Origin: Prorocentrum cordatum
Taxonomy: Eukaryota
Direction of reading: 5' to 3'
DNA: 64,000 bases
Assembly (NCBI GenBank): GCA_963575745.1
Contig: CAUYUJ010000114.1
Span: 248,001 to 312,000 of the forward strand
The notes under the pieces were generated by a model. The model was given only the letters and a program-made list of their open reading frames with translations, was not told the origin of the DNA and did not search any database. How positions within the stretch are numbered: position 1 is the first letter of the stretch; each line of letters opens with the position of its first letter. The position numbers and the translations under genes are program-made. Shown piece after piece: positions 10,534-49,322 of this stretch.

Positions 10534-10602
10534 CTCGCATAACTAGTCCGATGTCGTCAGGTCGGGGCGCAGGTTGGACGCGATGTCGGATATAAAAGAG
10601 AA

Positions 10603-20443: not shown

Positions 20444-20550
20444 CCCAGAGGATCGGCGATTGCTAGGCTAGGCCGGGTGAAGTTCAAGTGTTGCCACAGC
20501 GCTCAATTCTTCGCGCAGGACTTGGAGTGCTAGCCTAATACTTAAGTGCA
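20444..20550 (+). repeat. Left TIR and subterminal repeats
   Basis: TIR at 20444-20466; subterminal GTTCAAGTGTTGC, ACTTGGAGTGCTAGC and ACTTAAGTGCAC. Confidence 0.8.
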
Positions 20551-27240: not shown

Positions 27241-29235
27241 ATGGCGAGCGCTGCCCCCCCCCCCCCTTCTGCGGTCCTCGAAGAGGGTCGGGTCGAGCCA
27301 GCACCTCGGCGGCCAGGTCGAGAGAGGGATGCGTGTAGGGGGTGGCGGAGGGCAAGGATGAGCGGACAGAGTTCCTCCTCGACCTTCCTCCTCCGCGTGT
27401 TATTCCGTCTCCCCCTCCCCCTCTGCATCCTCCCCCCCTCAGTCTCACTCTCATCCTCCTCCCCCGCGTCCTCCTCCTCGTTCGCCCCCTCCTCCGACCG
27501 CTCTTCCTCGTCGTCGGCTTCCTCCTCCTCCTCCTCCTCCTCCTACTCCTACTCCTCCTCCTCCTCCTCCTCCTCCTCCTCCTCATTCTATTCCTCCTCC
27601 TCCTCCTCCTCATCCTCCTCCTCATCCGCCTCATCCTCCTCCTACTCCTTATCCTCCTCCATGTTCGTCGTCGGCGTCGTCGGCATCGTCATCCTGATCC
27701 TCCCTCTCTCTGTTTCGCTTGCCAGGCCACGGCGCCAGCGTCGCGGAGCTCCACGCGCTGGAGCAGAAGGCGCTGGAGCACGAGGCCGACCTCCAGAAGA
27801 TACAGGAGTTCGAGGCGAGCGAGACATTGCAGCGGCAGCTAGCCGACGAGGAGCGGCACCAGGAGAGCGGGCGCTGGGAGGAGAGAGAGCGCGACAATGC
27901 TGTGGTGGCCGTCAGCAGCAGCGATGATGCCCCACTGAGCGGCGGCAAGGGCAAGTCGATCGCCGCCGAGCTCGGCCTGAGCGCGGGCATCGGCAAGCGC
28001 GGCGTCGACAAGGGCGGCGCCGGCAAGGGCGGCAAGGGTGGCATGATGGCGCTGCCAGGGCTGACGATCGCCAAGGGCAGCGACGCCGCGGGCAGCGCCG
28101 CGGTCGACCGCCGAGGTGGCGGCGGCGGCGGCAGCGAGGGCACGGACGGCGTCGGCGCCGAGGTGGCGGCGACGCGCGCCGAGGGCACGGACGGCATCGA
28201 CGTCGCCGCGGACGTCGGCGCGGCCAGCGCCGAGGACATGGCGCCACCCCGTGCACCGCTAGGGGCGCAACCAGCGTGCCCCCTGCCGATGCCTGAACGC
28301 TCTCGCTCCCCTCATCGTCAGAGTCGACCCCTCAAAGCCCTCCTCGCACTGCCCCCCCCGCCCCCCGAAAGCCCACTCGCCCTGCCCCCTCGCCCTGCAT
28401 CATGGACGCCCCCCCCCCCGCCCTGGCACCCCCCCGCAGACGACCCCCCACCGGCAACCCCCTCACGAGCCCCTCGATGCGACTTTGACGGTGGGGGCGG
28501 GGCGGGAGCGTCGGGGGCATCGGCGCGGGGCAAGTTGATTTCGCCTCGAAGGCACCGCGTGCCGAGGGCGAGAAGCGCAAGAAGCGCAAGAAGAAGAGGC
28601 GGCGCGCGGCCGACGATGACGGCTGGCTCGCAGACGGTGGCTACGACACCCCGCCTGCGACGTGCAGGGGCGTCATCAGCACGGCGCCGTCCGAGGCGAT
28701 CCCCTCGGAGCAAAAGGAGATGGCCGAGGAGAGCGAGCACTGGGACGAGCACGCCGTAGAGGAGATCCAGCACGCCCAGCTGCGGAAGCTCAAGAGCGGC
28801 TCGAACACGCTCCCGCCCAGCGCCGAGCAGAGGGACTGCATCGCCGCGACGCCTGGAGTTCGTGGGACAGCCTGGGCCATGCAAAGCCCTTCCCCGTCCT
28901 CATCGCGTTCCCCATTGTCATCCTCCCCCTCCTCGCTACGCACCTCATCCTCACCCCCCCTCGTCATCATCTTCCCTCATTCCTCCCCAGCAGTCCCCTC
29001 CTCCTCATCCTCATCATCCTCAACATCACCTTCCTCCTCCTCCTCCTCCTCTTCCTCCTCCTCCTCCTCCACCTCCTCCTCCTCCTCCTCCTCCTCCCCC
29101 TCCTCCTCCTCCTCCTCCTCCTCCTCCTCCTCCTCATCCTCCTCCTGCTCCTCCTCCTCCCCCCCTCATGCACCCCGTCCTCCGTTATGCCCCCGTCGTC
29201 GTCCCCCCTCCTCGGTTTCCTCATAGCCCTCCTCC

Positions 29236-29271
<36 letters not shown>

Positions 29272-29272
29272 G

Positions 29273-29311
<39 letters not shown>

Positions 29312-32300
29312 AGTCGTGCTCCTCATCCTCCGCCTCCTTCTCCTCATCCTCCACCTCCTTCGCATCCGCATCACCCCCTCCTCATCTTCCTCCGTCTCCG
29401 CAGCATGCTCCTCATCGTGTTCCTCATCCTCCTCATCCGCCGCACCGTTCCCCATCCCCATCATCACCATCCTCCTCGTCATCATCATATCCATCATCAC
29501 CATGCCAATCCTCCTCGTCATCGCCATCATCAAGTACACCCCCACACATCCCCGTTCACCAACATCATCATCACCAACACCAGTATCATCACCCGTCATC
29601 ATCATCAGCATCACCTCATCATCCCCATTGTAGACATCGCCACCATCATCATCGTGCTCATCATCGCCAGCCTAATCATCACCACAAACCGCATTACCAT
29701 CACAACCGCCATCGTCATCAACATCATCACCGCCAACACACTACCCGTCGTCGTTGTCGTCGGTGGTCATCGGTGAGCCATCGGTGACACATCGGTGGCC
29801 ATCGGTGAGCTATCGGTGACACATCGGTGAGCCATCGGTGAGCTATCGGTGCACCCCACACCTGCCACGTCGATTGCCCGATCCCACAGGACACAGTCAT
29901 ATGACGACGCGGCCACCCCCGAGAAGGTCCTCAAGGACGCCATCGCGAAGCTGGAGGGCAAGATCCAGAAGAGCCGATACGTTGAGCACGACAACAAATT
30001 CAACAAGCTCAACCCGCAGATCAGAAAGCCAGGAGGTGCCACTGATGCTGCCGCTGACGCGGGCGAGAAAGGGAAACGCCATGCGACAGGACTCGAGGAG
30101 TTGAGGAAGACAGTTGAGGACGGAGACGGCAGCTTTACGATTCGGAGTGCGCTGGGACGACAGTTCGACAGAGAGAAAGCGGGCTCCGCCAAAATGCAGA
30201 AGGAGTGGGACTTGTGCCTCGACCGCGAGCAGTACAAGCGCGAGTGGGCGAAGACCAAGTACGAGGGCAGGATCCTGAGCAAGCGCATCCACTCCACGAC
30301 GGTCAAGGAGAATTGGACGGAGACGGGCAAATTATGCACGTTTCTGCGGCTCCTCTACGAGGAGGGCGGGCCTCGCGGCCAGTGGGACCCCGACTGCATC
30401 AGGCAGTGCGCGGCGTACGCCGCCAAGTGCGTCGACCTGGGCTACCCCTACGCCCAGGTCGACGACTGGTCCGACGGCGTGGTGAAGTACATGTGGTTCG
30501 AGCAGAAGTGGACCAACGAGTTCGAGCGGCTCTGGTCGGAGGTGCAGACCCAAGACAAGGAGAAGGAGGACGACGCGCCCGCGGCCAGTGCACCAGCAGC
30601 GCCACCAGCGACCCCGCGGCCCAAGCCCAAGCCGAAGCCAGACGACGGCGGCGTGGCCAAGGCGATCAAGGAGGCAAAGGCCACGGTCGGCGAGGCGAAG
30701 AACGTCCTCGCGAGCGCCACCAGCGTGCGCGCGATGATCGACGACGCCTCCGAGTCGGACGAGTGGGCGTGGGCCAAGACGCCGCGGGTGCACGGGCAGA
30801 TGAAGAAGGAGATCGGCATCCTCACCAACTCGTTGCGGCAGAGCACGCTGGCCCACCTCATCATGACTGGCGTCAACGAGGCCACGAAGGCGCCATGGGG
30901 TAGCAACGCGGGCCCTCCCCTGTCCTCCTCCTCCTCCTCATCCTCCTCCTACTCCTCCTCCTCCTCCTCCTCCTCCTCCTCCTCACTCCTCCTCCTCCTC
31001 ACTCCTCCTCATCCTCCTCCTCCTCCTCGTCTTCCTTCCACTCCACCTCCTCCTCCTCCTCCTCCTCATCCTCCGCCTCCCCCTCCTCCTCCTCCTCCTC
31101 CTCCCCCTCCTTCAAGCAATCGTCGCCGACATCTAAGCCCCACAGCACGGCTCCTCCTCCTCTTTCTCCTCCTCCTCCTCCTCCTCCCTCCTCCTCCTCC
31201 TCCTCCTCCTCCTCCTCTTCACCCCCCCCATCCCCATCCCCTCCTCCTCCACCTCCTCCTCCTCCTCCTCCTCCCCCTCCTCCTCCTCATCATCCTCCCC
31301 CGTCCCCCGTCACCGTCCGTCCTCCCTCCTCCTCCTACTCCTCCTCCTCCTCCTCCTCCTCCTCCTCCTCCTCCTCTTCCTCCTCCTCCTCCTCTTTACC
31401 AACGCCATCGCCATCGTCACCATCACCATCATCGCCACCAGCATCGTCCGAATCATTACCATCAGTATCACCATCACCATCATCATCACCATCACCATCA
31501 CCATCACCATCATCAACACCATTATCATCACCATCATCGTCACCATCATCACCACCATGATCACCACCATCATCACCATCATTATCACCATCGTCGCCGT
31601 TGTCGTCATCACCACCAGTATCGTCATAATCACCACCACCAGCATCGGCATCATCATTGCTGATGCTATATGATCGCTGCTGTCGTCGGCATCTTCATCG
31701 TCATCATCACCGTCGTCATCGCTGTTGCGTGCACCCGCCCTTGCCCAGATCAAGAAGCGCCTGTCCAACACGCAGATCGTGAAGGGGAACATCGATATGC
31801 AGCCCGTGAAGGACTGGCTGGGGGCGCGCGGCGGGGGGGGCGGTGGACGGGGTGGAGGACGGATGGATCCTCCCATCCTCCTCCTCCTCCCCCCTCGTCC
31901 TCCTCCGCCTCCTCCTCCTCCTCATCCTCCTCCTCCTCCTCCTCCTCCTCATCCTCCCCTCCCCCCACTTCGTCCCCCTCCTCCTCCTCCTCCTCCTCGT
32001 CCTCCTCCTCAGTTTTTGTGGGAAAATGTTTCCGAATTCCACGCTCGACTGCGTGGTTCCTCCTGCTCCTCCCTCCTCATCCCCCTCCTCCCTCCCCTCT
32101 CCCTCCTCGTCATCGTCCTCCCCCGCCTCACTTCATCCACGCGTGTATCTGCCCACGTCGCGCGCTCGCAGGACGCCATCGAGGCGCTGCAGAGAACCCT
32201 GGGCAACGCTCTGGCCGCCAACGACAACATGCAGCAGGTGCAGAGGGGCAAGCACGACACGAAGGCCAGGCCCGAGCCGCCGCGGGACGACGACGCGGAT

Positions 32301-32342
32301 GAGCAGAAGCCCAGGCGGCTGAAAAAACGTAGGCTCCGCTGA
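27241..32342 (+). CDS. Transposon gene B, unknown function, ~5 exons (27241-27316, 27726-~28830, ~29890-30889, 31749-31811, 32172-32342); one frameshift within exon 2
   Basis: Coding islands between microsatellites have compatible AG acceptors and GT/GC/GA donors. The core reads ...YKREWAKTKYEG...GKLCTFLRLLYEEGG...AAYAAKCVDLGYPYAQVDDWSDGVVKYMWFE... There are basic NLS-like runs (KRKKRKKKRRR, RRLKKRRLR). The exon 2/3 junction is unresolved, and the frameshift is probably in the poly-C runs at 28350-28450. Confidence 0.6.
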
Positions 32343-33491
32343 GCGCTGGTAGGCGCTGGCAGGCGGCTGGCGCACGCCGACGCTTCGTGATTGGGTGCGT
32401 GGCGCATGGGAGGTGTGCGAGCCAGTTGCACAATTTCAGTTGTGATGCACGCGACACGCCGTGCTGCAATAAATATCCCTGGGCCGTGGCTGAGCTGAAA
32501 CGAAAATTGACGGAAACATGCCCCCGAACACCTAAAAATACAGCAAAATTACCCCAAAACTACCGGTGAGGTACCGGTGAGCCTCCGGTGAGCCTCCATC
32601 GGTGAGCCATCGGTGAGTTTATCGAAACCGCTCGATACATGGTCGAAAAACGGAGGTGAGCCATAGGTGAGCCATCGGTGAGCCATCGGTGAGCCATCGG
32701 TGAGCCATCGGTGAGCCATCGGTGAGCCTCGAAATAAACAGAAAAACACATCAGAAATTGTGAGCCAGCCACGCTCGGGAGTGCACGTGTCGAGGTCAGC
32801 TGTGCGTCGAGGAGATATCGCGCGCTCCGCGCGCAGACGCCCCCAGCGCTCGCGGACGAGCGCGTGCATGGGGCGACGATTGGGGAGAAAAAAACACACA
32901 ATCAGATAGTGATGCCACCGCCTGTCGATCATGACCGTCCCTGTGTCCAGTGATCCCGTCCTCGAGGTAACGAGGATGCGCACGTTTATGATGTCTTGTG
33001 TGTGCATGCGGAGAGGGATGGCCATATCGAGGAGAGGGTATGTATAATTGGGGGCTAGGCGTTGTAATAGAACGTGAGTCACGCAACTCGGGATGGTGAT
33101 TAACCCTAATAGTGGTGATGATAACGATTATGAATAGGGGTGATGAGTTGCAGTATCGAGGATGGCGCAATCCAGCATGTGGTTGACCCCATCTACTCCA
33201 CAATTGGGGCCCTGAGTATGTACATCACCTCGTCCTCCTCCGCATCGACACCCTCCCCCTCGTAAGTCAGCGTGCCCCCCCTCCCGCCACCGCCCAACAT
33301 ATCACACATGCCCGATCTCACCCATCAGGTGCCGCACCCTCCTCCTCCTCATCCTCATCATCCTTATCCTCCCCCTCCTCCTCCTCCTCATCCTTCTCAG
33401 CTCCTCCGATCACGTGCTCCCTCTCATTACTTGGCACGAGTGTGCGTGTGCAGTCGTGCATAGCCGCGCAGATCTCGAGATTAGTTTGGTC

Positions 33492-36400
33492 ATGCCCCCT
33501 TCCGACAAGCGGAAGCGGAGTATCCCCGCGCCAGTTGCGCCCGAGGTGTTGGCCCGCACTCGGGCCGCTGCAGGTGCCGAGTTTGTGCATAACCTCCTGC
33601 ACCTCTACGGCACAGGCGTCCTGTCTGCTAAAGCTTTTTGTGAGCTTGCACATTCTGCATGTCAAGCTGGCGCTGAAGGTGAGTGCGGTGCATGGGGGCT
33701 GGAGCCGAGCGCGACGGGGAGTACGGGCAGATACCAAAAACACATAGAGCGGGTACTCGACAGCAAAGGGTTACGCAAAGTTATCCCCATTCCTTTTCGG
33801 ATCCCAATACAGTCTAGGGTAAAGGCGAAACGAACATATCATGACATGCTTGTACGACCGTTGCACGAGCTCCTCCACCAGGAAATCATGGGTCGCCCAC
33901 TTGCTCTCGCAGAAATGAAACATGCAATGGGGTCACGCGCGTGGCCTAAAGTATTCACCGAGCACCCAGTCTATCTCGAGTCAGACCCTGACGACCTGGT
34001 GGTGCCGATTGCTGTCTTCGTCGATTCGGCGCAATACGGTGGATCAGCTGGGGCGGGGAGGACAAAATCAATCCTCACGATATCATTAATAAATCTGGCC
34101 TCTGGGGTGAGACACATTGGTTTAGAATTTCGTAAACACTTGGCATGTAAATGTGGTTGCAGGGGTTTCTGTAGTTACCAGCGACTTTTTACTATGCTCC
34201 ACTGGTCTCTCGACAGCCTGGCGTTGGGGAAGTTCCCATTGGAGCCTTGGGATAACGGTGATTGGCCCCTCGGATCCGAGGGGTGCGCTACCAACGCTGG
34301 GAACGACTTGGGATTTAGAGCAGCTCTATGTTATCTTATGTGTGATTGGGAAGGCCTCACGCAATTTTATTGTGTACCACAATGGGGCCACAAATACCAC
34401 CCATGTCCATTGTGTTCGGCATCCCTCCAGACCATGTTCTCGTTCAGGCTATGCAGTTGCATGTGCATGTACACACAGGGGGGCGCTTATAGACACTTAT
34501 CTATGTATGTATGTATGTATGTATGTATGTATGCATGCATGCATGCATGCATGCATGTATGTATGTATGTATGTATGTATGTATGTATGTATGTATGTAT
34601 GTATGTATATATCGGGGGGTTACACACGCTGCGTGGGATGTCCGTGGGTCTGATAAGGGGCTTAGACGTGCGGTGTAACGTAGACGGATGATGATGACTG
34701 ACGCATGTGATGATATTACGGGTGATATTGCGAGATGGTAATATGAATGGTGGTGGGAAAATGTGGGCCCGATGATCAGGGGGACTTCCGTGCGAGAGAG
34801 CTCGGCGCGCGGGGCTGAGCGCGGTGGGCCTCCATACTGGCTCGGTCTGCGGCGTGGTGGCCGCGAGCCTCGGCACGCGAGGTGCGTTGAGGGGGGGGAG
34901 GAGGAGGAGCTCGAGGAGGGTGATGAGGCGGATAAGGATGATCATGATGATGATGCTGCTGTTGATGATGACGATGATGAGGATGAGGCGGAGCTCGAGG
35001 AGGAGGGGCATGCGGAGGGGGACGGGGATTAGGATGATGAGGGGCAGGACGAGGAGGAGGAGGATGAGGATGATGAGGATGATAAGGAGTGAGAGGATAA
35101 GGAGGATGAGGAGGATGATGCGGATGATGAGAAGGATGATGACGATGAGGATGAGGGGGAGGACGATGATGAGGAGGATGCGGAGGCGGATGCGGACGAT
35201 GATGCGACGGCGGATGGGGATGATGGTGATGATGAAGAGGAGGAAGATGATGAGGAGGAGGACGGGGATGGGCGGGAGGGAGTGACGAGGAATACGAGGA
35301 TGATGATGATGAGGAGGATGTTTACGAGGGGGGCGGGGGGGCGGGAGCGGATGAGGAGGAGACGGAAGAACACGATGATGATGATGATGCTGATGAGGAT
35401 GATGGTGGGGGAGATGATGATGAGGACGGGGAGGAGAAGGGGGATGACGATGAGGACGATTAGGAAGAATGAGAAGAAGGGCGAACGGGATGAGGACGAT
35501 GAGGATGAGGTGGATGAGGAAGAAACGTAATGTGATGGTGATGATGATGATGCTGATGGTGATACTGCTGCTGATGATGATGATTACCCGTTTAAGTAAG
35601 ACGATGACCACGGTAGCCACGACCATGGCGGGACTAAGTTGGGTGATAATATGATTGGACGGTAATGATCATGCACATCCTCACTGTCGCCTGCACTCGT
35701 CTCATCCTCCTCATCCGCCTCATCATTCCCATCCTCCTCCCACTCCTCATCATCCTCCTCATCCTCCTCATCATCTCACTCATCAGCATCACCGTCCCCC
35801 TCGTCCTCCTCGCGTTCCCCGTCACCATTATCATACGCATGTGCATTATCGTCATTCTACGCTTACCCCGTCCCGTCTCCATATACACGCCCCATTCCCG
35901 CGATCATCATCATTATGCCCCCCCACACTGGCTATCCGCACTCTTCTTCCACATCCACAATATCACCCTACTCATCGTCCACAACATCGCCACATCTCCA
36001 CACACACACACACACACGCCGTCATCAGCGTCGGTGCTCAATCGGTGAGCCATCGGTGAGTTATCGGTTCCTAGTACAGTGCACTACTTCATTTCATGCG
36101 GCCACTGGCACCCCCCCATGGGCGCACCTATGCGTTGTGTGCAAGCGCATGTGCTTACATGTGCAGGCTCATTGGTGCTATGGATCCTATATGGGTGGAC
36201 CACGGCCCTGATTCACACGAGCTCGCCACGCGCAGTGCTGAGATAAAGGTGGTCATTCGCACAGCCGAGGAGCGTGCCAAGCTGATTGCTGATTCACAGC
36301 TGGTGTTCGATACCAGACCGAAGACTGGACGGGGCCTCACGGTGACACGCGACACAGCCAGTCTGAATGCGGACAGCAACCCACTTGCCAAAGGAGATGA

Positions 36401-39203
36401 ACTCCATCCTCAGCCCGCACTGCCTGATGTCTTCATGTATGCGGTTGTGCCAGTACCGTGTGTGCTCAAGTTTTGGCGCCCGTCGTTAGCATCATTGACA
36501 AACCATCGGAATCAGATATTCTCTGGGTCTGGTGGCACCAACATTGCAGAGCATTACGCAGTTGACTACATGCACACAGTGGCGTTGGGTGTGGCTGCAG
36601 AGGCCACGGTTTCAATAGTTTGGGGTGTACTGGCAACGTTGGGGGCATCTTTTTCTACCCAAGCAGTGCAGCACCAGTTCGGTATATCGCGGCTTCAAAC
36701 ACTCTTGACGTCTTTCTATGAGAAGAAGCGACGCGATGGTCACCCAGTTAGCGAGATCTCCCAGCTTGCAGTATCTATGTTCGGGTCCCCAGCTAAGCCC
36801 AAGCTAAAGGCGAAGGCAGCCGAGACGCTTGGACTCTTTGACTTCTGCGTGGAGGCGGTCCTCCCCGTGTGCGCGCACGTGATAGAGCGTGGGCCCGCCA
36901 TCGAGGCGTGTGCGAACGCACTTCGCGATTGGATTGTGTTGTTGAAGGCCGCCCCCGATGTGCCGTCAGACGAGGAGTGCTCCGCGCTGAACATGCACTG
37001 CGCGCGCCACCTCACGTTGCTCGAGACCGCTGGTATACAGCTGAAGCCGAAGCACCACTTGTTTTGGCATTTGTCATCAAGGACAGCCGCTGGGACACAC
37101 CAAATTAGCATCAGCATTGACGATGCATATGATGGTGTTGATGGTGATGGTGATGATGCTGCTGATGATGCTGATGATGATACTACTGATGATACTGATG
37201 ATGATGCGGCTGATGATGATGATGATGGTGATAGTGATGCTGAGGATGCTGATGCTGATGCTGATGATGATGACGATGACGATGGTGATGATGGTGATGA
37301 TGATGATGATGGTGATGATGATGAGTCGGAGGTGTGAGGAGGATGACGAGGAAGCTCGATGATGGCGAGGGCAACGATTGACCCACCCACCCACACCAAA
37401 AGTACGTGTGCCCTGGTGCATAATCTAAACATGGGCGATGAGCGTGTGCCCTGGGGTGCATCTTCTGTGGGTATCCGTTGAATGGGGGCTCCCACTGGCG
37501 GATGATCACGACACCCCCCCCCGTCGCCCATCGGTGGCCTGGCTGGCTACCCGCGGGCATGGAGGGTGACAATGTGTTGTGACTGTCCGTCCCAACCCCC
37601 CGTTCGCGGATACCGTCTAGCCTTCGGCCGTTACTTTCCCGCCCGACCCCACGAGCTGCGTGAGGGGTGCGTCGGAGTGGGCGAGGCTTGGGCCCTCCAG
37701 GGGGCTGGGTGCCCCATGCCTCGGAGTCTTCTGGAGTCGTCGGCCTCTCAGGGCCCAGGCCCCCCCCTGTGTGCCCATAGCCTCGCATGACCCAGGGTCT
37801 CCAAGGCGTTTGAGGTGTCTTGGGGATCTTGGGTGTCTGAAGTGTTTAAAATTTGGCGTGTTCCTCGCCATGTGCGGGATCCGTGGATGGGGTCACGCAA
37901 AGGGGGCGAGCGGTTGTGGTTGTCCGTCCCAACACCTGCTTCGCGGCTCGATCTGCGAGTATCCGTTGAATGGGGGCTCCCACGGGCGGATGATCACGAC
38001 CCCCCTCCACCCCGCGCCCTGGCTGGCTAGCCGCGGGCAGGGATGGGGAAGGGGTTGTGATTGTCCGTCCCAACCCTCCGTTCGCGGATACTGTATAGCC
38101 TGCGGCTGTTCCCCGCCAGACCCCGTGATCCGCTTGAGGGGTGCGTCGGAGTGGGCGAGGCTTGGGCCCTCCAGGGGCCTGGGCGCCCCATGCCTCGGGG
38201 TCTTCTGGGGTCCTCGGCCTCTCAGGGCCAAGGGGTCTCATGTGTGTCCATAGCCTCGCATGACCCAGGTTCTCCAAGGCGTTTGGGGTGTCTTGGTGAT
38301 CTTGGGTGTCTGGGGTGTTTCAGTTTTGGCGTGAACCCCCCCCCCCCTATGCGGGATCCGTGGATGGGGCCATCAAAGGGGGCGAGCGGCTGTGGTTGCC
38401 CGTCCCAGCACATCCGTCGCGGCTCGATATGCGAATATCCGTTGAATGGGGGCTCCCACGGGCGGGTGATCACGACCCCCACCCCTCCCCTCCGTGCTCT
38501 GGCTGGCTAGCCGCTGGCAGGGGTGGGTGGGAAGGGGTTGTGTCTGTCAGTCCCAACCCTCCGTTCGCTGATACTGTCTAGCCTTCGGCTGTTCCCCGCC
38601 AGACCCCGCGATCCGCTTGAGGGGTGTGTCGGAGGGGGCGAGGTTTGCCCCCCCCCCCCCCCCCCCCCCCCCCTCCTCCCCTCCCCCAGGTGCCTGGGCG
38701 CCCCATGCCTCGGGGTCGTCTGGGGCCCTCGGCCTCACATGGCCCAGGGGCTGCAGGGTCTAGCACGGGTCTCCTGTGGGTCCATGGCCTCGCATGGCCC
38801 AGGGTCTCCAATGCGTGTGGGGCGTCTGTAGGATCTTGGGGATCTTGGGTTCCCGCTCTCCCCTCCGCGCATGCGCACACGCACTTGCGCGCCGCGTCAC
38901 CACCCTCACGCGTCCCCGACCTGACCTCACCATATATGTCTCTCGCTCGCTCTCTCTACCCCTCTCTCTCACTCCATATGTATCTGCCTCCGCTCACACA
39001 ATCCTAGCGCCGCGGATCTCTCGTATAGGATCCAGTGGCTGGGGCACCCGCGCCTATACGCCACATGGCGTGACGAGTCGTTGAACTCCCTGCTGTCCAA
39101 TTTAGCCGAGTCTGTTCACCCCTCTAATTTTGAGAGCGGCCTGTTTGTCAGATTGGACGTCCAAGCTGAACTAGGGGTTGGGGCTCATCGATCTCTTGTA
39201 TGA
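33492..39203 (+). CDS. CMC/CACTA-type DDE transposase, 3 exons (33492-34447, 36167-37081, 39029-39203; ~681 aa), apparently intact
   Basis: PIAVFVD (D1), LCYLMCDW (D2), HPCPLC, DYMHTVALGV, KPKHHLFWH and GHPRLYATWRDESLN (E) match the CMC signature C(2)C, (M/L)H, H(3-4)H. Introns are GC-AG (34448-36166) and GA-AG (37082-39028), both phase 2 with AG|G. The 2046 nt end in TGA. Confidence 0.82.
37440..38850. repeat. ~480-bp tandem repeat, about 3 diverged copies, in transposase intron 2
   Basis: ATCCGTTGAATGGGGGCTCCCAC recurs at ~37473, ~37961 and ~38437. Confidence 0.85.
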
Positions 39204-39599
39204 CGTGGTCGTGTACTGTGACATGTGCCAGCGAGCAGCGCATGCACATCACATACACAGGCGCGGCGTCGAATCGTGCGGCAGTGGCCCACGCCACCTC
39301 TACATGCCAGTTGAACGGCACCACCCCTCGCATGAAACCAGCAAACGAATCTCGACAGATACCGTTGCCCAATACTTAAACACATTGATGTCTATTCGAT
39401 TGCATGGGGCGTGTTGCTTTGCTAGCGTCGTGTCGCCCCGATAAGGCGTGACGTCGACGACTGCAAGGCCGTGGTCGACGGCATGAGGATGTGACTTGCG
39501 CCAGTTCGGCGACACGACAGGCCATCACGCATTTTGCGCAGCGGTCTGACACTGTTGTTTCACTTGTCCTCTCGTTCACTCAACCACCTTCGCACTTAC

Positions 39600-41079
39600 G
39601 CATGCACTCGCTCACCCACCCACCCCACCCATTCATTCAACCAGCCAATCATTCCGTTACCAACTCACTCATTCACTCATTCTTTCGCTCACCACCCACC
39701 CACCCACCCGTCCAACCACCCACTCACTCACTCATCAAACCACCCGCACACACACACCAACTCACTCACTCACTCACTCACTCGCCCACGCTCTCACCAA
39801 CCCGCACACTCACCCACCAACCCACCCACATTCCCAATCGTTCACTCACTCAATCGCACCTTGCCCCACTCATCTTCACCCGCTGCGCCTCTTCACCCCC
39901 ATAGTCCTCCTCATCCTCATCATCATCATCATCATCATCCTCATCCGCATGTTCATCTCCCATCATCACCATCATTATCATCCTCCTCATCATCCTCCTC
40001 ATATTCCGCATCGTCCTCATCCTCATTATCTGCATCGTCGCCATCCGCATCATCATCAGCACTGTCCGTTCCATTATCATCACCCTCTGATCCTCCTACA
40101 CCTCATCATCCACATACTCAGTCACATCGTCCGATTCCTCCTCCTCATCCCCTCCCCCATCCCCCTTATCATCCTCCCTCCTCCATCTTCCCAATCCCCC
40201 CAACCCCCCCTCCTCGCCCCCCCCCATCATCTTCAACATCCCCATCCTCCTCCTCCTCCTCCTCATCACCCTCGTCATCACCCCCTCCCCTCATCCTCAA
40301 CACCATCCCCATCATCTTCACCAGCATCAGCCTCATTCTCAGTATCCGTTCCATCTCCATCAACCTCCTCATCGTCATCCTCCTCCCCACCCTCATCCTC
40401 CTCACCAGCGCCCCCTCATCCTCATCGTCTTCTCCCTCCTCATCATCACCATGCTCATCCTCGTCCTCATCATCCTCGTCCTCATCATCAGTCGCACCCC
40501 CCTCCCCGTCACAATCGACCATCGATACTCAATCATCCTCATCGCCCACATCCTCCTCACCCTCATCACTCTGCATCGTCGCCCATCGTCATCATCGTCG
40601 TCCTCACAACCCCCTTGCCCCCATGCCCCTCCGTCCCATCCGCTCACCCCGCCCCATTCATCATCCTCGCATACACACCCCCCACATCACCCCTTTCCCT
40701 CTCCGTATGCACATGCGCTGCAGCATCGGCGCGCGGCGCCTGGATGAAGACCTCCGCCGCTGTACGTGCCCAGTCACCGACCGCTGGCTGCTTGAGGCAG
40801 CGTCGGGCGCGGGCACGGAGGGCGGTGATTGTTATGTAATTCGATGATGGATGGGAGGGTATGGCGTGGACGATGGGGCGATGCGGGTGCGACAGCGGAT
40901 GGCGATGGCGGGGCAATGTTTGAGGCTGATGGTGATGAAGGTGAAGAGGAGGACAACGATGAGGATCATGACGGGTAGGATGATGATGTTATTGGCGAGT
41001 GTGATGATGGTAATGATGAGGACGATGATGAGGCCGCGGACGAGGATGATGATGGTGGCGGTGCCGATGATCACGGTAC

Positions 41080-41118
<39 letters not shown>

Positions 41119-41127
41119 CGATGACGC

Positions 41128-41165
<38 letters not shown>

Positions 41166-41772
41166 GTGCGGATGATGCTGATGCCGATGCTCATGATGCT
41201 GAATCTGATGTCAGATATGATTAGGAATGGTGCGAAGGGTTAATTGCGTTGTTGCGGATGGTCAGGGTGATGTGTACGACGATGGCGAGCGCGATCCGAC
41301 AATGTGGGTAATGTGGGTGATTGGGAATATAGTTGGGCGTGCAACAAGGCGATAATTAATGTGAGGGGCGGGGTGCGTTGGATGCCGCGGATGGTAATAG
41401 CATGCGGATGCGGGTGAGGATGATTGCGCCGCGGAGTATCATGATGCGGATGATGAGGGTGTGAATTGCGAAGGGGACGATGAAGGTGATGACCACGGTG
41501 ATGGGGAGGATGATACTGATGGTGGCCAGGGCGAGGATGTGAGTGGCGATGGCGACGATGATGCTGATGTGGAAGATGCGGATGGGGTGGGGTGGGTTTG
41601 GTGGGTGGGGGTTGGGTGGTGGTAATGGTGAGGACGAGGGGGGTGTTGGTGGGGTTGATGATGGTGACACACGTGGGTTGCGGAGGGGGTGTGGATTTGG
41701 GTGATGACGGAGGTGGCGCGGTGAATGATAACGACGAGGCGCGGTTGGGGATGATGATGATGATGCTGCTGC

Positions 41773-41812
<40 letters not shown>

Positions 41813-42320
41813 AATGCGGAAGTGGGATGGTGTTGGGATGGTGATGATGATGATGCTGATGATGATGCTGATCCTGGGGGTGATGTGGCTGATGACGAAA
41901 CTGAGGACGATGAGGAGGATGCGGATGGTGCTGATGACGGGGCGGATTATGATGCTGGTGAGGAGGACGGTCACGATCATGCGGATTATGATGCTGCTGG
42001 TGACGATGTAATTATGATGAGGACGACGATGCGGCAGATGATAAAGATGATGATGTGGATTCGCATGAGTAGCAGTGGGACGATGATGATGCTGCGGGCG
42101 AGGACGAGGCGTATGATGCGGATGCGGATGCGGATGCGGATGCTGCTGATGATGATGATGCTGATGATGATGATGATGATGAGGAGGGGGACGAGTCGCA
42201 TGCGGATGAGGATGATGAGGAGAATGAGTAGGATGAGTAGGATGAGAACGCGGATGAGTAGGATGAATCTGATGCGGATGCTGATGATGAGGATGCTGAG
42301 GACGATGATGATGCCGACGG

Positions 42321-42364
<44 letters not shown>

Positions 42365-42713
42365 GCGATGCTGAGGAGGCGGGGGTGTGACGAGGATGAT
42401 GATGATGGTGAGGACGGGGAGTATGTGGATGATGATGATGAGGAGGAATACGATGATGATGACGACGATGATGAGGACGAGGGTGCTGTTGATGAGGAGG
42501 AGCCGTACGAATATGAGGACGATGAGTATCATGTTGGGGAACATGATGAAGCGTATGACGATGATGAGCAGGATGATGAATGACGAGGAGGAGGAGGAGG
42601 AGGATGAGGATGATGAGGACGAGGGGGGATGGGGATGCAGACGTGGAATATGATGATGATGATGATGATGACGATGATGATGATGATGATGATGATGCTG
42701 ATGATGATGATGC

Positions 42714-42744
<31 letters not shown>

Positions 42745-42770
42745 GATGATGTGGAATGATGGTGATGTGG
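39600..42770. repeat. Low-complexity block: (CACT/CACC)n, (CAT/CCT)n, (GAT)n
   Basis: Directly visible. Confidence 0.9.
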
Positions 42771-43105
42771 GGGGGTCCCCAGTCTCCGCGCACGCCTCAC
42801 CCGCATCCCCCTGCTCGTCGCCTTCACCCCTTCCAGAAGCTGTCGGGCTCGACCCCGCGGCACGGGCCCCTGGGGGAGGGGGGTGAATCGTTCGAGCTCA
42901 GACTCTGACACCGACATGGAGGCGACAAGTCCGTCGGAATCAGTCGTGAATGACACCGATCACCTTTATGACCCGAGGGCGCAATTTCAAAAAACCAACC
43001 TGCCCCCCCCCGCCCCCTCCCCCCAGTCCAACGCTGTCCTTGCACAGTTTTTGCGCCCCTTCATTCTGGTTGGGAGGGGTGGTGCACACGGAAGACATTG
43101 GGGTG

Positions 43106-43195
43106 AATTCGGTGGAACGACCTGCCCCCCACGGAGCGGACGGCATCGCATGTTGGCCGTGTCGCTTCATGGGGGGCAGGTCGTTCCACCGAATT
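43106..43195. repeat. Perfect 26-bp inverted repeat forming a 90-nt hairpin
   Basis: AATTCGGTGGAACGACCTGCCCCCCA (43106-43131) and its exact reverse complement (43170-43195). Confidence 0.9.
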
Positions 43196-44780
43196 GCAGA
43201 GGTCGGTTCTTCCCGCGCACGCCCCTCCGGGCTCCCAGGACGCAGTTCTAGCCGAGGCGCGATCGTTCCGCCACCTCCCGAACACGTGCAAGGCCATGTC
43301 AACATCGGTGGCCGACACGGTCATGCTCAGTCTGTTTCGCAAGGCTCCAGATGGAACCCAATTTCCCGCGTCCGCGAACGAGAGACAAGAAACGACCTAA
43401 CAAGGGGTTGGTCTGGAGGATTGGGGGATGGAAGGAGGGCTATGCATTATAATAAGGACTACGGTGTACGTGGTGCACGGGTAAACGTGAAGACAAAAAC
43501 GACACACGCACACACAACACCAACGACAACACCAACGACAACAACAACAACAACAACACCACAACAACAACAACAACAACAGCAACAGCAATAACAGCAA
43601 CAACACCACCACCACCAACAACAACAATATACACGCGTGTGTTTGCGGACGCGCGGGAATTGGTTTCAATCTACTAGGGATGGGCACAACATGGTCGGTT
43701 TATGCCTACCCGTGAGTCTGTGCCTAGGAGCGGTAGTCTCACCGTGGGATGGCTCCGTCGGATCGGGTACCATGTGTTCCCGCAGCTAGATGCCAGTCTG
43801 TATGCATACTATCACGACACGTTTTTCGCTGCGGCCGCCCCCTCCGACCACGAGAGGGTTGTCCCAGAGTTCACGGACGCAGAGCTGCTCGCCATGATTG
43901 GGTGACGTTTGCGGAAGTAGTAACACGACAAGTGAAAAAGGGATGGGGAGAGACCGACAAACACAATTCGTTGAGTCAGGTGTCTTAAGGATGTTTCAGT
44001 TTTTCGCATGGTCGGCGTCGCGCCCCAAACGGCCCAACATGCCCCCAAGACCGCGACAAGACAGCCCACTTGCAAGATTGATCCCCCGTTCCGCCCCCCT
44101 TCAACAGAAGCGACCCAAAAACTCCCCGCGACTGCCCAAACAACGCGCCCACACGAGTGTCGAAGCATGCCAGAGGGCAACCACAAGGCATGCAAACCAT
44201 TGGCCGAGCCTTCCTCTCAACGATGCGCCCTCCCCAGGCTCCCGAGATGCCCCAATATGCACCCAAACGCTTGAACGAAGTTCCAACAGAATACGACCAC
44301 GCCCTCCCAGAAACATCAAGATATTCCAGGAGGCCCCAGCGATCGATGCTTCCCACGACATCCAAACTAATCCCAATGAGGGGCCGTACGCAAATTGCAA
44401 AATGGCACGTGCCCCCCATCGTTCCTACTCCCCTGATCTTGTAATTATGAGTGCAGCCGCCACCGCCGCACGCAAATCGACGATCCTTTCCTCGTCGCCG
44501 CTCCCTCGGTAGGTCGCGGCCCATCGGCGCACGTCGTCTTGGTCGACATAGATAAACGTTCCTCAGGCCCGTTTGTACACGCACACACACACACACACTC
44601 GCGCACCAGTAAATAATTCCCACGAACATAACTAACGATGTGCGTAACCATGAATATCCGATCTGATCGGCAACCCGTTCGACTTATGACAGCCCCCTGT
44701 GGACGATACACGCACACCGCAATGTAAAATGAGTAGATTTGCGTGTATATCGTATACTGCACATACATTATTATTCTTAT

Positions 44781-44864
44781 GATAGCACTCCAATCCCTAT
44801 GCTAGCACTTCAAGTCTTACATGTAAATCACACGCCTTGCGCTAGCAATCAGGGATCCTCTGGG
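44781..44864 (-). repeat. Right TIR and subterminal repeats
   Basis: CTAGCAATCAGGGATCCTCTGGG ends at 44864; subterminal GATAGCACTCCAAT and GCTAGCACTTCAAGT. Confidence 0.8.
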
Positions 44865-47800
44865 CAGCCTGCCTCTCTGTCCGATCCAGACCCATCCGTG
44901 GCGATCCACCAGCCCTCCGGCGGTGCCGGGTGGGGGCCGTACTGAACATGCATCCAGCGCTCTTCCGTGGTCTGCAGAGCACGCTGGAATTCCAGACGCG
45001 CCGGACAGCGGGGTTTATGATACTGTAGCCGGGTTCCCAGGTATTGCTTACAGTCGAGGCAATAATGCGCCCAAGTGGTCACCAACCCCGGGTCCCGTAT
45101 GGCGTGATGCTCGTCGTAATGAAACCGCAACTGGTTCCCTGCATTGAAGCGCTTCTCGCAGCCCGGTACTGGGCACACGTACCTTCCATCGGCCGCTCCT
45201 GCTGCAGCAGCGCCAACACCCCCTCCCGGAGGAGGGGGAGGGGGAGGAACTGGGGGAGGGGGAGGGGGAGGAAACGGGGGGACGCCCGGAGGGTCATCCG
45301 CAACCAATTCCGGATCGTCGCTGGGCAGGGGCGCTCCAGGGCGCGATTGGTTCACTAGTGCCCGATACTCATTCGTCACTTCGATGGCCGGAAACGCCCG
45401 GTTGACGGCGCGCCTCCAAGCCTGCCGGCTGGTGGCCTTTCTGAACCAGTCGTGTTCGTGGATTCCCATGCGCTGAATCCCACGACCCAACCAAAGGTAC
45501 TGCCAAGAGCACCGGTTGTACTCGTCACATCTACGACCGGCGACCCAACCGAACAACACTTGTTTCGGCACCCTGCAGACAGGCATTCGGGCAACGTGAC
45601 CAAGCCATTGCATGGCTAGGCGAGCGATCTGGTCCTCGATAGTCCTCCAGCGGGAGGCACGATACATTGCGGCGTCAGCAATCGAATGCTCCTCCATGGC
45701 CCACACATCCATCCCGAACGCTCTCCTGACCCCGTAATCGGCCACTCGTTGCAACCTGAGCAGATCCGCCTTGCTCCAGGAGCGTGACCGACAGCCCGAG
45801 AGCAGGGATGTAATGGCACACTGCTGGACCACTGAAAGCCGCGTAGAAATATCGACGCCACTCGTCCTTCTTCGGCCGTGGGCCGTGCCCTGTGACCATC
45901 CTTTGGCGATAGTGCGGATCAACCCTTTGGTGGCAATAACCCGGCGAGCCGTGTCGGCCGTTTGGAGGCCGACTTCATGATGGATCCTTCCAAGGTGCCT
46001 TAGTTGTGAAACCTCATGTTCGCGACGCACATCATATGGTGACCGCTGGTGGCCGCTGATATACAACCGTTCCGTTTTGCCAGCGTTTACCTTTTCCTCC
46101 CAGTCTGACATAGTCGTCCCCAGCAGGGGTTCCGACGTACGCATCTCTGTGGCAAAACCCGCTATCATTGTGTCGTCGGCGAAAGCGACGTCTCCGAGTA
46201 CCATAGCGCGTTGGGAGCTCGATTTCCCTTTCTCCGTGATCTCCTGGTGCCGTTTCCGGGCTTTCTTTTGTAGGTGCCCGTCAATCTCGTACTCCCATGG
46301 AACCCCAGGGGTCAGACCTGACGCTGCCGCCAAGCGCTTGCGTCGGCCCCTGAAGTCTTTCAGCACCGCGTCGTGGAACACGTTGAATAAAGGTGGGCTC
46401 GACGGGCACCCCTCCCGGAGGCCGCGTTTGGGGTACCATCCTTCCGACGTACCGCCCAACACACGCACCTTGCATCCAGTGTGCTCGTGCAGTGCTATGC
46501 ATACTCCTAGCATCCCCGGCGGACATCTTCTCAACTCTAGTAGCCGCCACAAAGCTGGACGGCACACCCGAGGGTATGATTTTTCAATGTCCAGAAAGGA
46601 CAACACTATTGGCGTCCCGTGTCATGGAAGACGCTTCAGACGCTTCCTCGATCAGTCTGCGCGTCACCTGCGAGGCGTCGTCGGTCCCACGTCCTCTCCG
46701 AAAGCCCGATTGCTCCTCGCCCAGGAACTCCTCGGACCACTGGGACACCCGCGAGGCGATAACTCTCGCTAGTAACTTGGACCCAGCGGAGAGAAGCGTT
46801 ATGCCTCTCCAAGTGTTCTTGTCCTTGCGGTTGCCTTTTTTCTTCCACAGCGGCACTACGAGTCCCGTGCGCCATTCTGCCGGCCACCCGGCGGCTTCCT
46901 CCTCCTCCTCCCCTTCTGCGGCCAACGTCCACATTCGTTTCACAGTGGCAAACACGTGCTGCCGGATTTCGTTGCCACCAAACCGGAGGGCTTCAGCGAC
47001 GAAGCCGTCCTCACTCGGTTGTTTGCCCGTTTTCATCTTGGTAACACAACGATCTAGTTCCAGATCCGTTGGGACTGCGTCAAGCCAACTCGCTGTCAAC
47101 GGCGATTTTGGCACTGACTCCCATACCCGGTCAGCCACTCGGCCGACATCGCCGGATATTCTTTCGAAGTGCCGTCGCCATTCGGCTCGTTCCTTGTCAG
47201 TGTCCGCTACGCTGACGCGCCCAAGGGGGCGCCAGCGTCGGCCCGAGCGGAGTTCGTTGAACAGCCTGTAAAGTGACGCTTGGTCCCCTCGGTGAGCGGC
47301 TTCGGACGCCCGCTTCCCGATGTCTTCCCAGCATGTCCGTTCCCAGTTTCTGAGCGTGCGACGGCGGACGCGGGCAGCTTCCCGCTTCGCTTGGAGCGCC
47401 GCGGCTGACGTGGAGGCATCTGACAAAGACCACAAGCCACGAGCCTCCTCCACTTTGGCGTCCAATCTGCGCTTCTCCTGCGCATGCCCCCTCCGCCAGG
47501 GGATCTGGTGCCGAACAGGTCGGGCACCTAACACATCCATCCCTGCAGTTTAGGCCACCTCACAGATCGCCCGCCACGTCGGCGGGCTAGCGCTGGCATC
47601 CCCGAGCAACTCCGTGACCCGGGAAGCAAAACGTTCCCGAAGTTGGTTCGCCGATTCACTAGACCCGACCATGCTCGGGTAGTTCGGCGCATTGCCCGCC
47701 GAGCCAGACCTCGGATTCTGGGCTCCGCGTTTCCACCATGCTCCCCCGAGACGGATGCCGATCTCTGCGGGGTCGTGGTCTGTATATGCCGCCCAGGCGA

Positions 47801-49082
47801 TTGCACCGTCGTCTTTGGTCCGGGGTCCGGCTCTACGCTGCCGCCTCCGCGCCCGCCGGGACACGCCCAGTTCAGGCCCCGACGCAAAATGTAGCGTCCG
47901 ACACGCGTGGGTGTGCCATCGATCCCGAGTACGAGTAAAGAGGTGATCCAATTGGTGGCCCGTCCGAAGACGGGGGTGCCACCACGTGCACGCTTCCCTC
48001 TGTGGGAACGCTGTACTCAGGGCAAAGAGTCCCTTCTCCTTACAATATTCCAGTAATTCCCTCCCGCTGTCAGTGCGGCGAGGCGCCCCATGGGATCCTA
48101 GCACAGCCGTGTCCTCGGGGTCCCTGCAGGGGCCGAGCTCGGCGTTGAAGTCTCCGCCCATGACCCACACGTTGTCGGCGCCTCTGCTGCGCTCTTCTAC
48201 ATGGGAGATCTCCTCATAGAATCGATCGCGAGCACGAGCGTAGCGAGGGCCTGAGCAGGGCGCGTAGCAGGCCACTAGCGTGAGGCCTCTTTGCGCACCC
48301 TGTCTGGGAAACATGGTAGACACACACCTCTTCCCCTTCCGTTCCTCCCCCCCTTTCACCACTACCTGCCCCCCTCCTTTCCTCCATTCTTCCGTGAGTC
48401 GTGGACTCAACGCAATTCCTACCGTTCCTCTGATGACAACCGTCCAAGCTACGCCCTCGTAGTCAAATTCTCTCACTCCGTTGTCAGGGAAACTGAGATC
48501 CGATAGCAGGCAAAAGTCCCAATGTCTGGCAGTCATGAGCGCGAGCAAGCACTCTGTCTTCATGAGTTGTTGCGCTCCGCCTGTGGCCCCCCAGCACCTG
48601 GCGTTCCAGGTGCCGCCTCGGAGGTACGTACACTCCCCCCTGCTCACGGCGCGACGGCGCCGGGAGGCTCTACGGAGCAGGGACAGTCTGCGCATAGCCA
48701 TCGCCCGTCTGTGTTTCCTCCTACGTGCTTTCTTGGCTTTCCTGTGCGCTCTCCTGCGAGCGTTCCTCCGCTGGTTTCTCGTCACATCATCACACGACTG
48801 CATAGGGTCCGTGTTGATGGGCACAGCACCAGAAAACCCACTGGACGAACCAACTCCAACTGCCGGGTCGCCTGGACCATGGGCACCCCCGGCCTGCCCC
48901 CCAGATGGGGCCGAGAGGGACAGAGCCGGAGTTCCAACCGCCCTCTCAGGCATGTTACCCGGGGAGGTTTGAGCAATCCCGCCCCCCAGCCAACCCGATA
49001 GGACCCGTGAGGAGGAGCTCCCGGAGGACCGAACCGAAGACGCAAGCCGAGAGACACCGAGCCCCCCCCGTCCGTCTCCCAA
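44865..49082 (-). pseudogene. LINE ORF (APE-RT-C2H2-RNase H start) with an in-frame TAA at 47550-47552 and a frameshift near 46610
   Basis: ORFs 47550..49082 and 46584..47540 share a frame across a single stop. ORF 44849..46606 continues in a shifted frame and reads into the TIR. Confidence 0.85.
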
Positions 49083-49105
49083 TAGGGGGCGCCCTCTTGT
49101 AGAGG

Positions 49106-49322
49106 GCGTGGGTTAGCCGTGTCCATTGGCTCCACCCTCCAACAGAGCAGAAAAAGGATTCCTATAAGGAGCCAGTTTGGCACGTTGCCCCTGCTGCGGC
49201 CGTTCTGCATGTGTACCTTGGAGGAGGAGGAGGAGGAGGAGGGGGAGGAGGAGGAAGAAGACGAAGACAAGCCACACGATGAAGTTGCAGAACTGCGTGG
49301 AGGCCTATGCTCGAGCAGCAGC
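49106..49322 (-). ncRNA. Candidate degenerate HDV-like ribozyme at the LINE 5' end
   Basis: GGGCAA-[P4: CGTG/CACG, CCA/TGG, TGGCTCC/GGAGCCA]-GCTAA, plus upstream CTGCTGC/GCAGCAG pairing and GCC-TCCACGC. P2 is imperfect and L3 is interrupted by an insertion. Confidence 0.4.

Follow-up and report, generated by a model that had tools for sequence, protein, structure and literature searches.

A three-exon gene with a predicted DDE-type transposase product, from a large unnamed protist family, in a contig of Prorocentrum cordatum

Within a 64,000-nt stretch of Prorocentrum cordatum DNA (contig CAUYUJ010000114.1, positions 248,001 to 312,000 of the forward strand; hereafter 'the window', in which position 1 is the first letter) we analysed a plus-strand gene whose predicted product has the makings of a DDE-type (Asp-Asp-Glu) transposase. 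The gene is composed of three exons (33492-34447, 36167-37081 and 39029-39203), begins with an ATG at 33492, ends with a TGA at 39201-39203 and, once joined, amounts to 2046 nt (681 codons plus the stop) without a single internal stop. Exon 1 (956 nt; amino acids 1-318 and 2 nt) carries an N-terminal basic patch (KRKR), the first catalytic aspartate (D1), a CxCxCx3C cluster, the second catalytic aspartate (D2) and a C(2)C pair, while exon 2 (915 nt; 1 nt, amino acids 320-623 and 2 nt) contributes an insertion domain, a D452-x2-H455 motif and PKHH-x3-H. The short exon 3 (175 nt; 1 nt, amino acids 625-681 and the TGA) encodes G629-H-P...W-R-D639-E640-S-L-N643, its translation including IQWLGHPRLYATWRDESLN.

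When compared with a profile hidden Markov model (HMM) of 52 full-length homologues, the joined protein reached 537.8 bits (conditional E 2e-165; residues 22-669 over model positions 40-674) with a gap at neither exon junction, which places the gene model far beyond chance. Single blastp alignments likewise span both junctions (e.g. P0050, over residues 28-666). Exon 1 alone matched four longer proteins, the best of which was P0001 (39% identity, E 1.7e-62), and in the alignment with the longer proteins the join of exons 1 and 2 is colinear. A word-index search of exon 2 against longer proteins gave no match among 4751 candidates, an outcome that we attribute to the limits of the index, since exon 2 aligns to P0001 at 42%. 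Furthermore, the N-terminal KRKR resembles the N-terminus of P0204. Judged from homology, the locus is thus best read as a real three-exon gene, with a frame that is still open and a copy predicted to be coding-competent. The initial annotation of this DNA, which had proposed three exons joining in phase to 681 amino acids without a stop, is in this respect borne out by the 2046-nt open frame and the gapless profile alignment.

Conservation was counted over 53 aligned homologues (52 occupied rows in the C-terminal columns). The columns that are identical in 53/53 and kept in the window protein comprise P172, D178, C219, C221, C223, D285, C305, C308, G375, W422, D452, H455, G460, K614, H616 and H620, and those of G629, D639, E640 and N643 (each shared by 51-52 of the 52 occupied rows) are kept as well. 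The putative catalytic triad lies entirely within these positions: the first aspartate is D178 (in AVFVDS; codon 34023-34025, on the plus strand as are all codons given here), the second is D285 (in CDWE; 34344-34346), both being Asp in every homologue, and the glutamate is E640 (39075-39077), located 20 amino acids past H620 and occupied by Glu in 52/52 rows. The earlier proposal had put the catalytic Glu in the 175-nt last exon and had named poor conservation of the acidic residues among homologues as one of two observations that would speak against it; E640 does lie in exon 3, the three residues proved invariant, and the assignment is backed by colinearity with the homologues. We also considered whether the window protein had lost the Glu of a 'DWxE' motif, and rejected this, as both it and P0001 have DWE, one position earlier.

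The stretch between the second aspartate and the glutamate holds exactly two invariant cysteines (C-x2-C, 20 amino acids past D2) and three invariant histidines, of which two are arranged as H-x3-H, 20 amino acids before the Glu. The cysteines belong to C305-P-L-C308 (34404-34415; both 53/53), the C(2)C half of a candidate RAG1-type zinc site, and the paired histidines to H616-L-F-W-H620 (37056-37070; K614, H616 and H620 each 53/53), its H(3)H half; the remaining histidine is that of D452-Y-M-H455 (36564-36575; D and H each 53/53). A C(2)C and H(3-4)H arrangement between D2 and E is given as common to EnSpm/CACTA, Mirage, Chapaev, Transib, Plavaka, ESTA, Lanisha and RAG1 in the available text of PMC12730594, where the legend of Figure 4 names the shared set '2C and 3H'. 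The residues C305, C308, H455, H616 and H620 would make up such a set between D285 and E640. In mouse RAG1 (D600/D708/E962), as described in the accessible part of PMC4914335, one zinc site is formed by C727/C730 and H937/H942 within the D708-E962 insertion, and the spacings are close to those of the window protein: 108 amino acids between D1 and D2 (107 in the window protein), 19 from D2 to the first Cys (20 in the window protein), and 20 from the last His to the Glu in both (H942-E962 in RAG1). As the invariant D/D/E, C(2)C and H(3)H come with a RAG1-like spacing, we read the family as a transposase lineage of the CMCT type (CACTA, Mirage, Chapaev, Transib, Plavaka and RAG1). The C(2)C and H(3)H pairs, which link the family to this group, had escaped the initial annotation.

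A further cysteine cluster, CKCGCRGFC (C219, C221, C223 and C227; 34146-34172), lies between D178 and D285, as noted in the initial annotation, and may constitute an extra zinc site in the catalytic core. Its C-x-C-G-C part is invariant (C219, C221 and C223 each 53/53), and the position of the fourth putative ligand is occupied by Cys in 47 homologues and by Asp in 6, with no other residue found. This alternation of Cys and Asp fits a metal ligand. The suggestion of a metal-binding insert that is lineage-specific finds no support in this wording, for the presence of C-x-C-G-C in all 53 family members makes the C-x-C-G-C-x3-C/D cluster a family hallmark, peculiar neither to this copy nor to its lineage. 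The window protein lacks both cysteines of another pair (T340 and A343 in place of C340 and C343), each of which is conserved in 46-47 of the 53 homologues; 13 homologues are without one of them and none is without both.

Both introns consist mostly of simple and tandem repeats. Intron 1 (34448-36166; 1719 nt, GC...AG) has the junction words TTCAG/gctatg...tgtgcag/GCTCAT (slashes marking the splice boundaries) and harbours a (TATG)n repeat (34498-34612) and GAT/GAG-rich low-complexity sequence (34916-35785). Intron 2 (37082-39028; 1947 nt, GA...AG), with the words TCAAG/gacagc...gtatag/GATCCA, contains an (ATGATG)n repeat (37129-37324), a tandem repeat (37472-38647; unit of 483 nt, 2.4 copies, 84% matches) that occurs nowhere else in the window, and directly after it a run of approximately 40 C (38648-38687). 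The two introns are of phase 2, each splitting an AGG (Arg) codon, and both have the exon-final G before the GC or GA donor and the G after the AG acceptor that are typical of dinoflagellate introns. In addition, each intron shows the same word on its two boundaries: CAG/GCT for intron 1 (34442-34453 and 36161-36172) and AG/GA for intron 2 (37078-37085 and 39025-39032). Repeated boundary words were also observed in relatives (AG/GAGC twice in L014, G/GAC twice in L045), and could be a trace of how these introns arose.

In order to evaluate the choice of junctions, all in-frame and stop-free combinations of GT, GC or GA donors with AG acceptors near each junction were scored against the 52-sequence HMM. 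The pair 34447/36167 ranked first of 227 combinations (538.1 bits), followed by one with a GT donor at 34442 (532.2 bits; 2 amino acids shorter), and the pair 37081/39029 ranked first of 162 (538.1 bits), followed by 37088/39036 (GC...AG/T; 537.4 bits, equal length). The GC-AG and GA-AG introns of the initial annotation therefore correspond to the best-scoring in-frame pairs, and the junction words confirm both types. The scores favour these sites, leaving junction 2 unsettled by themselves. An alternative is that the gene is real and one or both junctions differ, with the donor of intron 1 being the GT at 34442 (and the protein 2 amino acids shorter) or intron 2 extending over 37089-39035 (GC...AG/T, with the length unchanged). 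Besides the closeness of these scores, the poor conservation around junction 1 speaks for it. Against it stand the AG/G on the exon side of both noted donors and the G after both acceptors, the distance from CPLC to GRG, which with junction 34447/36167 is 71 amino acids in the window protein and likewise in P0001 (manual count), and the position and phase of junction 2, identical to those of two relatives (L005 and L045, see below). We consequently consider shifted junctions to be unlikely, and retain the noted sites as the working model. The spacing from P to G in PKHH...G.P, 16 amino acids, also matches the full-length homologues. DNA contigs of sequencing runs mapped on the window showed no intron-less joined form over the gene, the listed joints lying in the GAT/GAG repeats at 34944-35412.

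The splice sites assume an ordinary appearance when set against what is reported for dinoflagellates. Gene finders for Symbiodinium have been altered to accept GA donors (PMC6123633, in the part available), and according to Table 1 of PMC7789003 the GC-AG and GA-AG share of introns is 25.3% in F. kawagutii, 51.8% in B. minutum and 74.0% in S. microadriaticum; the same source (again in the part available) reports identically repeated intron boundary sequences for dinoflagellates. The window gene resembles these Symbiodiniaceae introns in its G/GC and G/GA donors, its AG/G acceptors and the same words on both boundaries, and shows no feature that is unusual for that group; what sets its introns apart is their length (1.7 and 1.9 kb) and their being made of repeats. 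By this comparison, the GC and GA donors would be of the normal kind for dinoflagellates and not an exotic dependency. The dependence on host non-canonical splicing, which had been put forward earlier, thus holds only in a trivial sense, given that GC-AG and GA-AG introns form 25-74% of the introns in three Symbiodiniaceae; the donor of intron 1, moreover, could be a GT six bases upstream. The splice words of the window and the GA donor at the homologous intron of L045 also serve as indirect evidence, from the sequence itself, by which a dinoflagellate host is probable.

Intron 2 is matched in two relatives, as a 110-nt GT-AG intron in L005 (eight residues after PKHH) and as a 316-nt GA-AG intron in L045, in both cases at the same Arg codon and in the same phase. 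In P0001/P0204, P0004/P0212 and L013 the open frames stop a few codons past this Arg. We consider intron 2 to be old, because its holders are spread over three or more distinct clades in a tree of 64 rows. Intron 1, by comparison, is missing from the nearest homologue (P0001/P0204), the frame of which reads through that position. For other relatives, homology-guided placement of the junctions frequently picks GA or GC donors that have repeated boundary words, by small margins. The database proteins P0001/P0204 and P0004/P0212 end 2-4 residues past the intron-2 Arg, which indicates that public gene calls of the family often come without the exon of the catalytic Glu, the same omission as in the open reading frame (ORF) track on which the initial annotation drew.

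A family profile search over 1.84 billion cluster representatives (50% identity) retrieved 8025 of them at E<=1e-3 (4771 at <=1e-10, 1803 at <=1e-30), and relatives are encoded in 49 metagenome loci. The complete C-terminal motif, PKxHxxxH-(8)-GNPxxYxTWxDESLN, was present in 52 of 151 collected sequences, and its spacing is matched exactly by the join of exons 2 and 3 in the window. The family is without a curated model or a name of its own: Pfam gave no match at threshold for the three exon translations, and the 63 relatives from the word-index search have no precomputed Pfam domain and no name other than 'hypothetical protein'. None of PF18759, PF02992 and PF13960 reached threshold in the Pfam scans of exons and family members. 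Neighbours of the family in the ESM Atlas, a weak lead, are clusters of Plavaka (0.91), tnp2 (0.87) and RAG1 RNase H/ZnC2 (0.87), and of the 30 named clusters that rank best for exon 1, 23 belong to the Plavaka set. No paper describing the family was found, nor one with the motif strings CGCRGW, CGCRGWC or CKCGCRG, in a search that left subscription journals and Repbase outside, where the family may be described. Relatives were absent from viral contigs (none among 182 pattern matches). Two broken family fragments on short contigs are filed under prokaryotes (L050, 1038 nt, under a Phycisphaerales metagenome-assembled genome, and L051, 3501 nt, under a Raphidiopsis brookii draft), and probably represent eukaryotic contamination of these assemblies.

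The residue signature leads us to read the family as a very large and so far unnamed protist transposase lineage of CMCT type. Since neither a sequence match nor a structure match of significance was obtained, we do not file it as a proven CMCT member. A bolder reading would have it as an undescribed superfamily-level lineage within CMCT, hugely diversified (8025 clusters at 50% identity) among aquatic protists, the dinoflagellates included, and marked by the C-x-C-G-C-x3-C/D cluster and the ancient phase-2 intron just before the catalytic Glu, of which some members, possibly including this one, may be active; we hold this tentatively, as something that is possible and that falls short of probable.

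The state of the copy itself was approached through its variants and its relatives. A contig from one sequencing run (X1) differs from the window at five positions of exon 2, four of them nonsynonymous (T368N, A479T, K506R and C554Y) and one synonymous, over 1551 nonsynonymous and 492 synonymous sites; this 4:1 ratio fits the neutral expectation, five changes being too few to be firm. In the 64-row tree the end branch of the window protein measures 0.9 (0.6 for its sister P0204; median 0.66), in 49 of 52 comparisons it is less like the other homologues than P0001 is, and its nearest protein is approximately 40% identical. Among six pairs of close copies in relatives, the crude ratios of nonsynonymous to synonymous rates (dN/dS) were 1.33, 1.01, 0.92, 0.89, 0.35 and 0. 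Two of these relatives (L007 4632-7263 and L008 68-2683) are 99% identical, with 3 synonymous and no nonsynonymous differences, which could point to a recent duplication or to one element present at two places. The mostly neutral decay of recent copies, coupled with strong deep conservation, argues for a transposon-like pattern rather than for that of a host gene.

According to the initial annotation the gene may still be functional. In its full form this reading would have the gene encode the working transposase of an active autonomous element, which is expressed and spliced and mobilises itself or non-autonomous relatives. It is in keeping with the open frame of 681 codons, with the retention of every residue that is invariant in 53/53 (and of 40 out of 44 columns shared by 50 or more of the 53 homologues, within the range of 38-44 of the reference set), with a KRKR N-terminus like that of P0204, and with splice-site words that fit the dinoflagellate pattern. 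Set against these are the single copy of the transposase gene in the window and the lack of recognisable termini, the 4:1 variant, the loss of both C340 and C343, and the retention of only 73 of 96 columns conserved at >=80% (median 89), a comparison that is biased, as the consensus was made without the window's subfamily. Furthermore, the word depth of the X1 run contigs over the exons (9.5-20) is near that of the unique flank (14), from which it follows that the family does not have a high copy number at >=80% likeness. We therefore regard an active element as unlikely, and consider that the copy leans, on scant evidence, towards being solitary and drifting without constraint.

The window has the look of eukaryotic DNA full of repeats, and the surroundings of the gene are rich in mobile elements. 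On the minus strand, an uninterrupted frame of 2789 amino acids (2176-10542) matches the Pfam models of CCCH zinc finger, Torus, integrase core and RVT_2 at scores that are near the cut-offs or under them, and looks like an unusually long and apparently intact Ty1/copia-like polyprotein. It is accompanied on the same strand by a second copia-like element (15870-20467; RVT_2 9e-15 and rve 1e-5, in two overlapping frames) and by one resembling a long interspersed nuclear element (LINE; 44852-49112; RVT_1 and an Exo_endo_phos endonuclease), so that the transposase gene lies amid mobile elements. Closer to it, some 600 nt ahead of the ATG, minus-strand frames of repeated peptide words (PMAHRWLTDGS..., 32560-32900) reveal a short tandem repeat in the DNA. 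The window gave no match when scanned for Rfam families and tRNAs. Regarding the boundaries of related elements, the L007 and L008 copies diverge approximately 170 nt upstream of the ORF, and those of L034 and L038 approximately 140 nt past the stop, in TA-rich repeats with no clear inverted repeat. A Pfam scan of 42 neighbouring ORFs of eight long relatives gave no match. In two relatives of one clade, a second ORF common to both lies upstream by 2.5-3.5 kb, on the same strand (L005 997-2079 and L013 1193-2917, both plus; 28% identity over 363 amino acids, E 1.6e-28), for which Pfam gave no match and no counterpart was found in the window; it may be a second gene of the element.

A low copy number in X1, an ancient intron 2 shared by several clades and the lack of termini are also what would be expected of a transposase-derived gene that the host has domesticated, i.e. 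a single-copy gene with old introns that is retained for some cellular role. Two relatives with several introns, on contigs of 14 kb (L042 2621-8227 and L047 3187-8526), whose neighbours on both sides are homologous (41-47% amino-acid identity), add to this in that they represent either conserved synteny, a hint of domestication somewhere in the family, or a large composite element. Speaking against domestication are the absence of the gene from X7 and X8 (further organisms in the same study, with depth over simple repeats only), the setting among copia-like and LINE-like elements, the mostly nonsynonymous recent changes, the mostly neutral decay of close copies of relatives, and a nearest protein that is only about 40% identical, in view of which we deem it improbable, and distinctly more so than an active element.

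On the whole, we consider it fairly probable that the locus is a three-exon gene for a DDE-type cut-and-paste transposase of 681 amino acids, from a family that is very large, as yet unnamed and at home in aquatic protists. We take it for a copy, still open, that belongs to an old element and is of doubtful mobility, and not for a proven active transposon. Several observations weigh against this reading, or against parts of it. A scan for terminal inverted repeats between 29000-33491 and 39204-44000 found only GAT/ATC low-complexity pairs, and therefore gave no sign that the gene lies in a transposon. No named transposase family was matched with statistical significance in Pfam, NCBIfam or PDB profile searches: Pfam on 56 alignment members and 66 family members gave one sub-threshold match only (the same protein both times), NCBIfam gave none for eight family proteins, and a PDB-sequence profile search at E<=10 returned a spurious VP3 match and neither RAG1 nor Transib. 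The single Pfam match is that of DUF4218, which we take to be the CACTA C-terminal domain, on residues 624-678 of P0046 (E 0.022; score 15.1 against a 27-bit cut-off; 1 of 66 members), exactly on the PKHH...DESLN stretch, which makes it a weak lead in favour of the CMCT reading. As to the junctions, the margin is only 0.7 bits for junction 2 and 5.9 bits over the GT donor for junction 1. The dinoflagellate spliced-leader (DinoSL) word had no match in the window at <=3 mismatches and no exact one in the 49 relative loci. With respect to drift, by our own estimate approximately 8% of outcomes under an omega of 0.2 would give at least 4 nonsynonymous changes out of 5, and with all 53/53 invariant residues kept the predicted protein could well be active. 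The notion that the gene is no transposase at all, and belongs to some other zinc-binding family whose D, D and E resemble a catalytic triad without being one, gains from the lack of a significant match to any curated transposase model or solved structure and from termini being shown for no family member, and is nonetheless hardly credible in the face of three invariant acidic residues with 2 Cys and 3 His in CMCT order and RAG1-like spacing, of Atlas neighbours that are all Plavaka, tnp2 or RAG1, and of huge diversification along with neutral decay of close copies.

If the transposase reading is accurate, the pre-mRNA would lose two long, repeat-filled introns at G/GC...AG/G and G/GA...AG/G, as suggested by homology and the literature, and yield a protein whose N-terminus is basic (KRKR) and whose catalytic triad comes from exon 1 (D178 and D285) and exon 3 (E640). 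An insertion of approximately 350 amino acids between D2 and E would be clamped by one RAG1-like zinc site, put together from C305/C308 of exon 1 and H616/H620 of exon 2, and a second, family-specific C-x-C-x-C-x3-C/D cluster would lie between D1 and D2. Because the triad and the zinc ligands are split in this manner, all three exons would be needed for a catalytically competent protein. The few data on its recent evolution fit neutral drift of a copy that stands alone in the window and lacks termini that could be recognised.

Taken alone, the locus changes little, being an intron-bearing transposase gene in transposon-rich DNA with splice sites that are routine for its likely host. What it exposes is an annotation gap, in which thousands of diverged clusters have no Pfam or NCBIfam model and no name beyond 'hypothetical protein', and yet present the full RAG1/Transib/CACTA residue signature. 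Naming the family would clean up the annotation of protists and metatranscriptomes, add a branch to the CMCT clade and assist gene prediction where short terminal exons that follow a GA donor are now overlooked. Moreover, should some of its members be active, they would offer a native cut-and-paste tool for dinoflagellate genetics, and a deep branch in the history of the RAG1/Transib fold.

Among named transposases, the window family comes closest to Plavaka and EnSpm/CACTA, with which it shares the invariant D...D...E, the C(2)C soon past D2 and the H(3)H about 20 amino acids before E; the nearest named ESM-Atlas clusters are those of Plavaka and tnp2, and the sub-threshold DUF4218 match covers PKHH...DE..N. 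Intron-bearing transposase genes are likewise a trait of CACTA elements (PMC4158355, in the part available). The terminal inverted repeats (mostly 5'-CA..TG-3') and the target duplications of 2-5 bp that are typical of the CMCT clade were not found around the single window copy, and a second gene of CACTA type was not seen in the window, only L005 and L013 sharing an upstream ORF of unknown kind. The extra C-x-C-G-C-x3-C/D cluster between D1 and D2 has no mention for CMCT in the literature consulted. KDZ (Kyakuja-Dileera-Zisupton) is set apart from the group carrying C(2)C/H(3-4)H in PMC12730594. With KDZ the family would have in common that its members are Cys-rich eukaryotic DDE transposases, often unannotated. 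No KDZ or CxC model of Pfam was matched in scans, with E up to 10, of the three exons, of 56 alignment members and of 66 family members. CxC clusters have been described beside KDZ transposases. Lastly, Transib and RAG1 resemble the window protein in having a zinc site split by a large insertion between D2 and E (and RAG1 through its RNase H/ZnC2 Atlas cluster), and differ from it in the H(4)H of mouse RAG1 as opposed to H(3)H, and in an insertion that is approximately 100 amino acids longer in the window protein.

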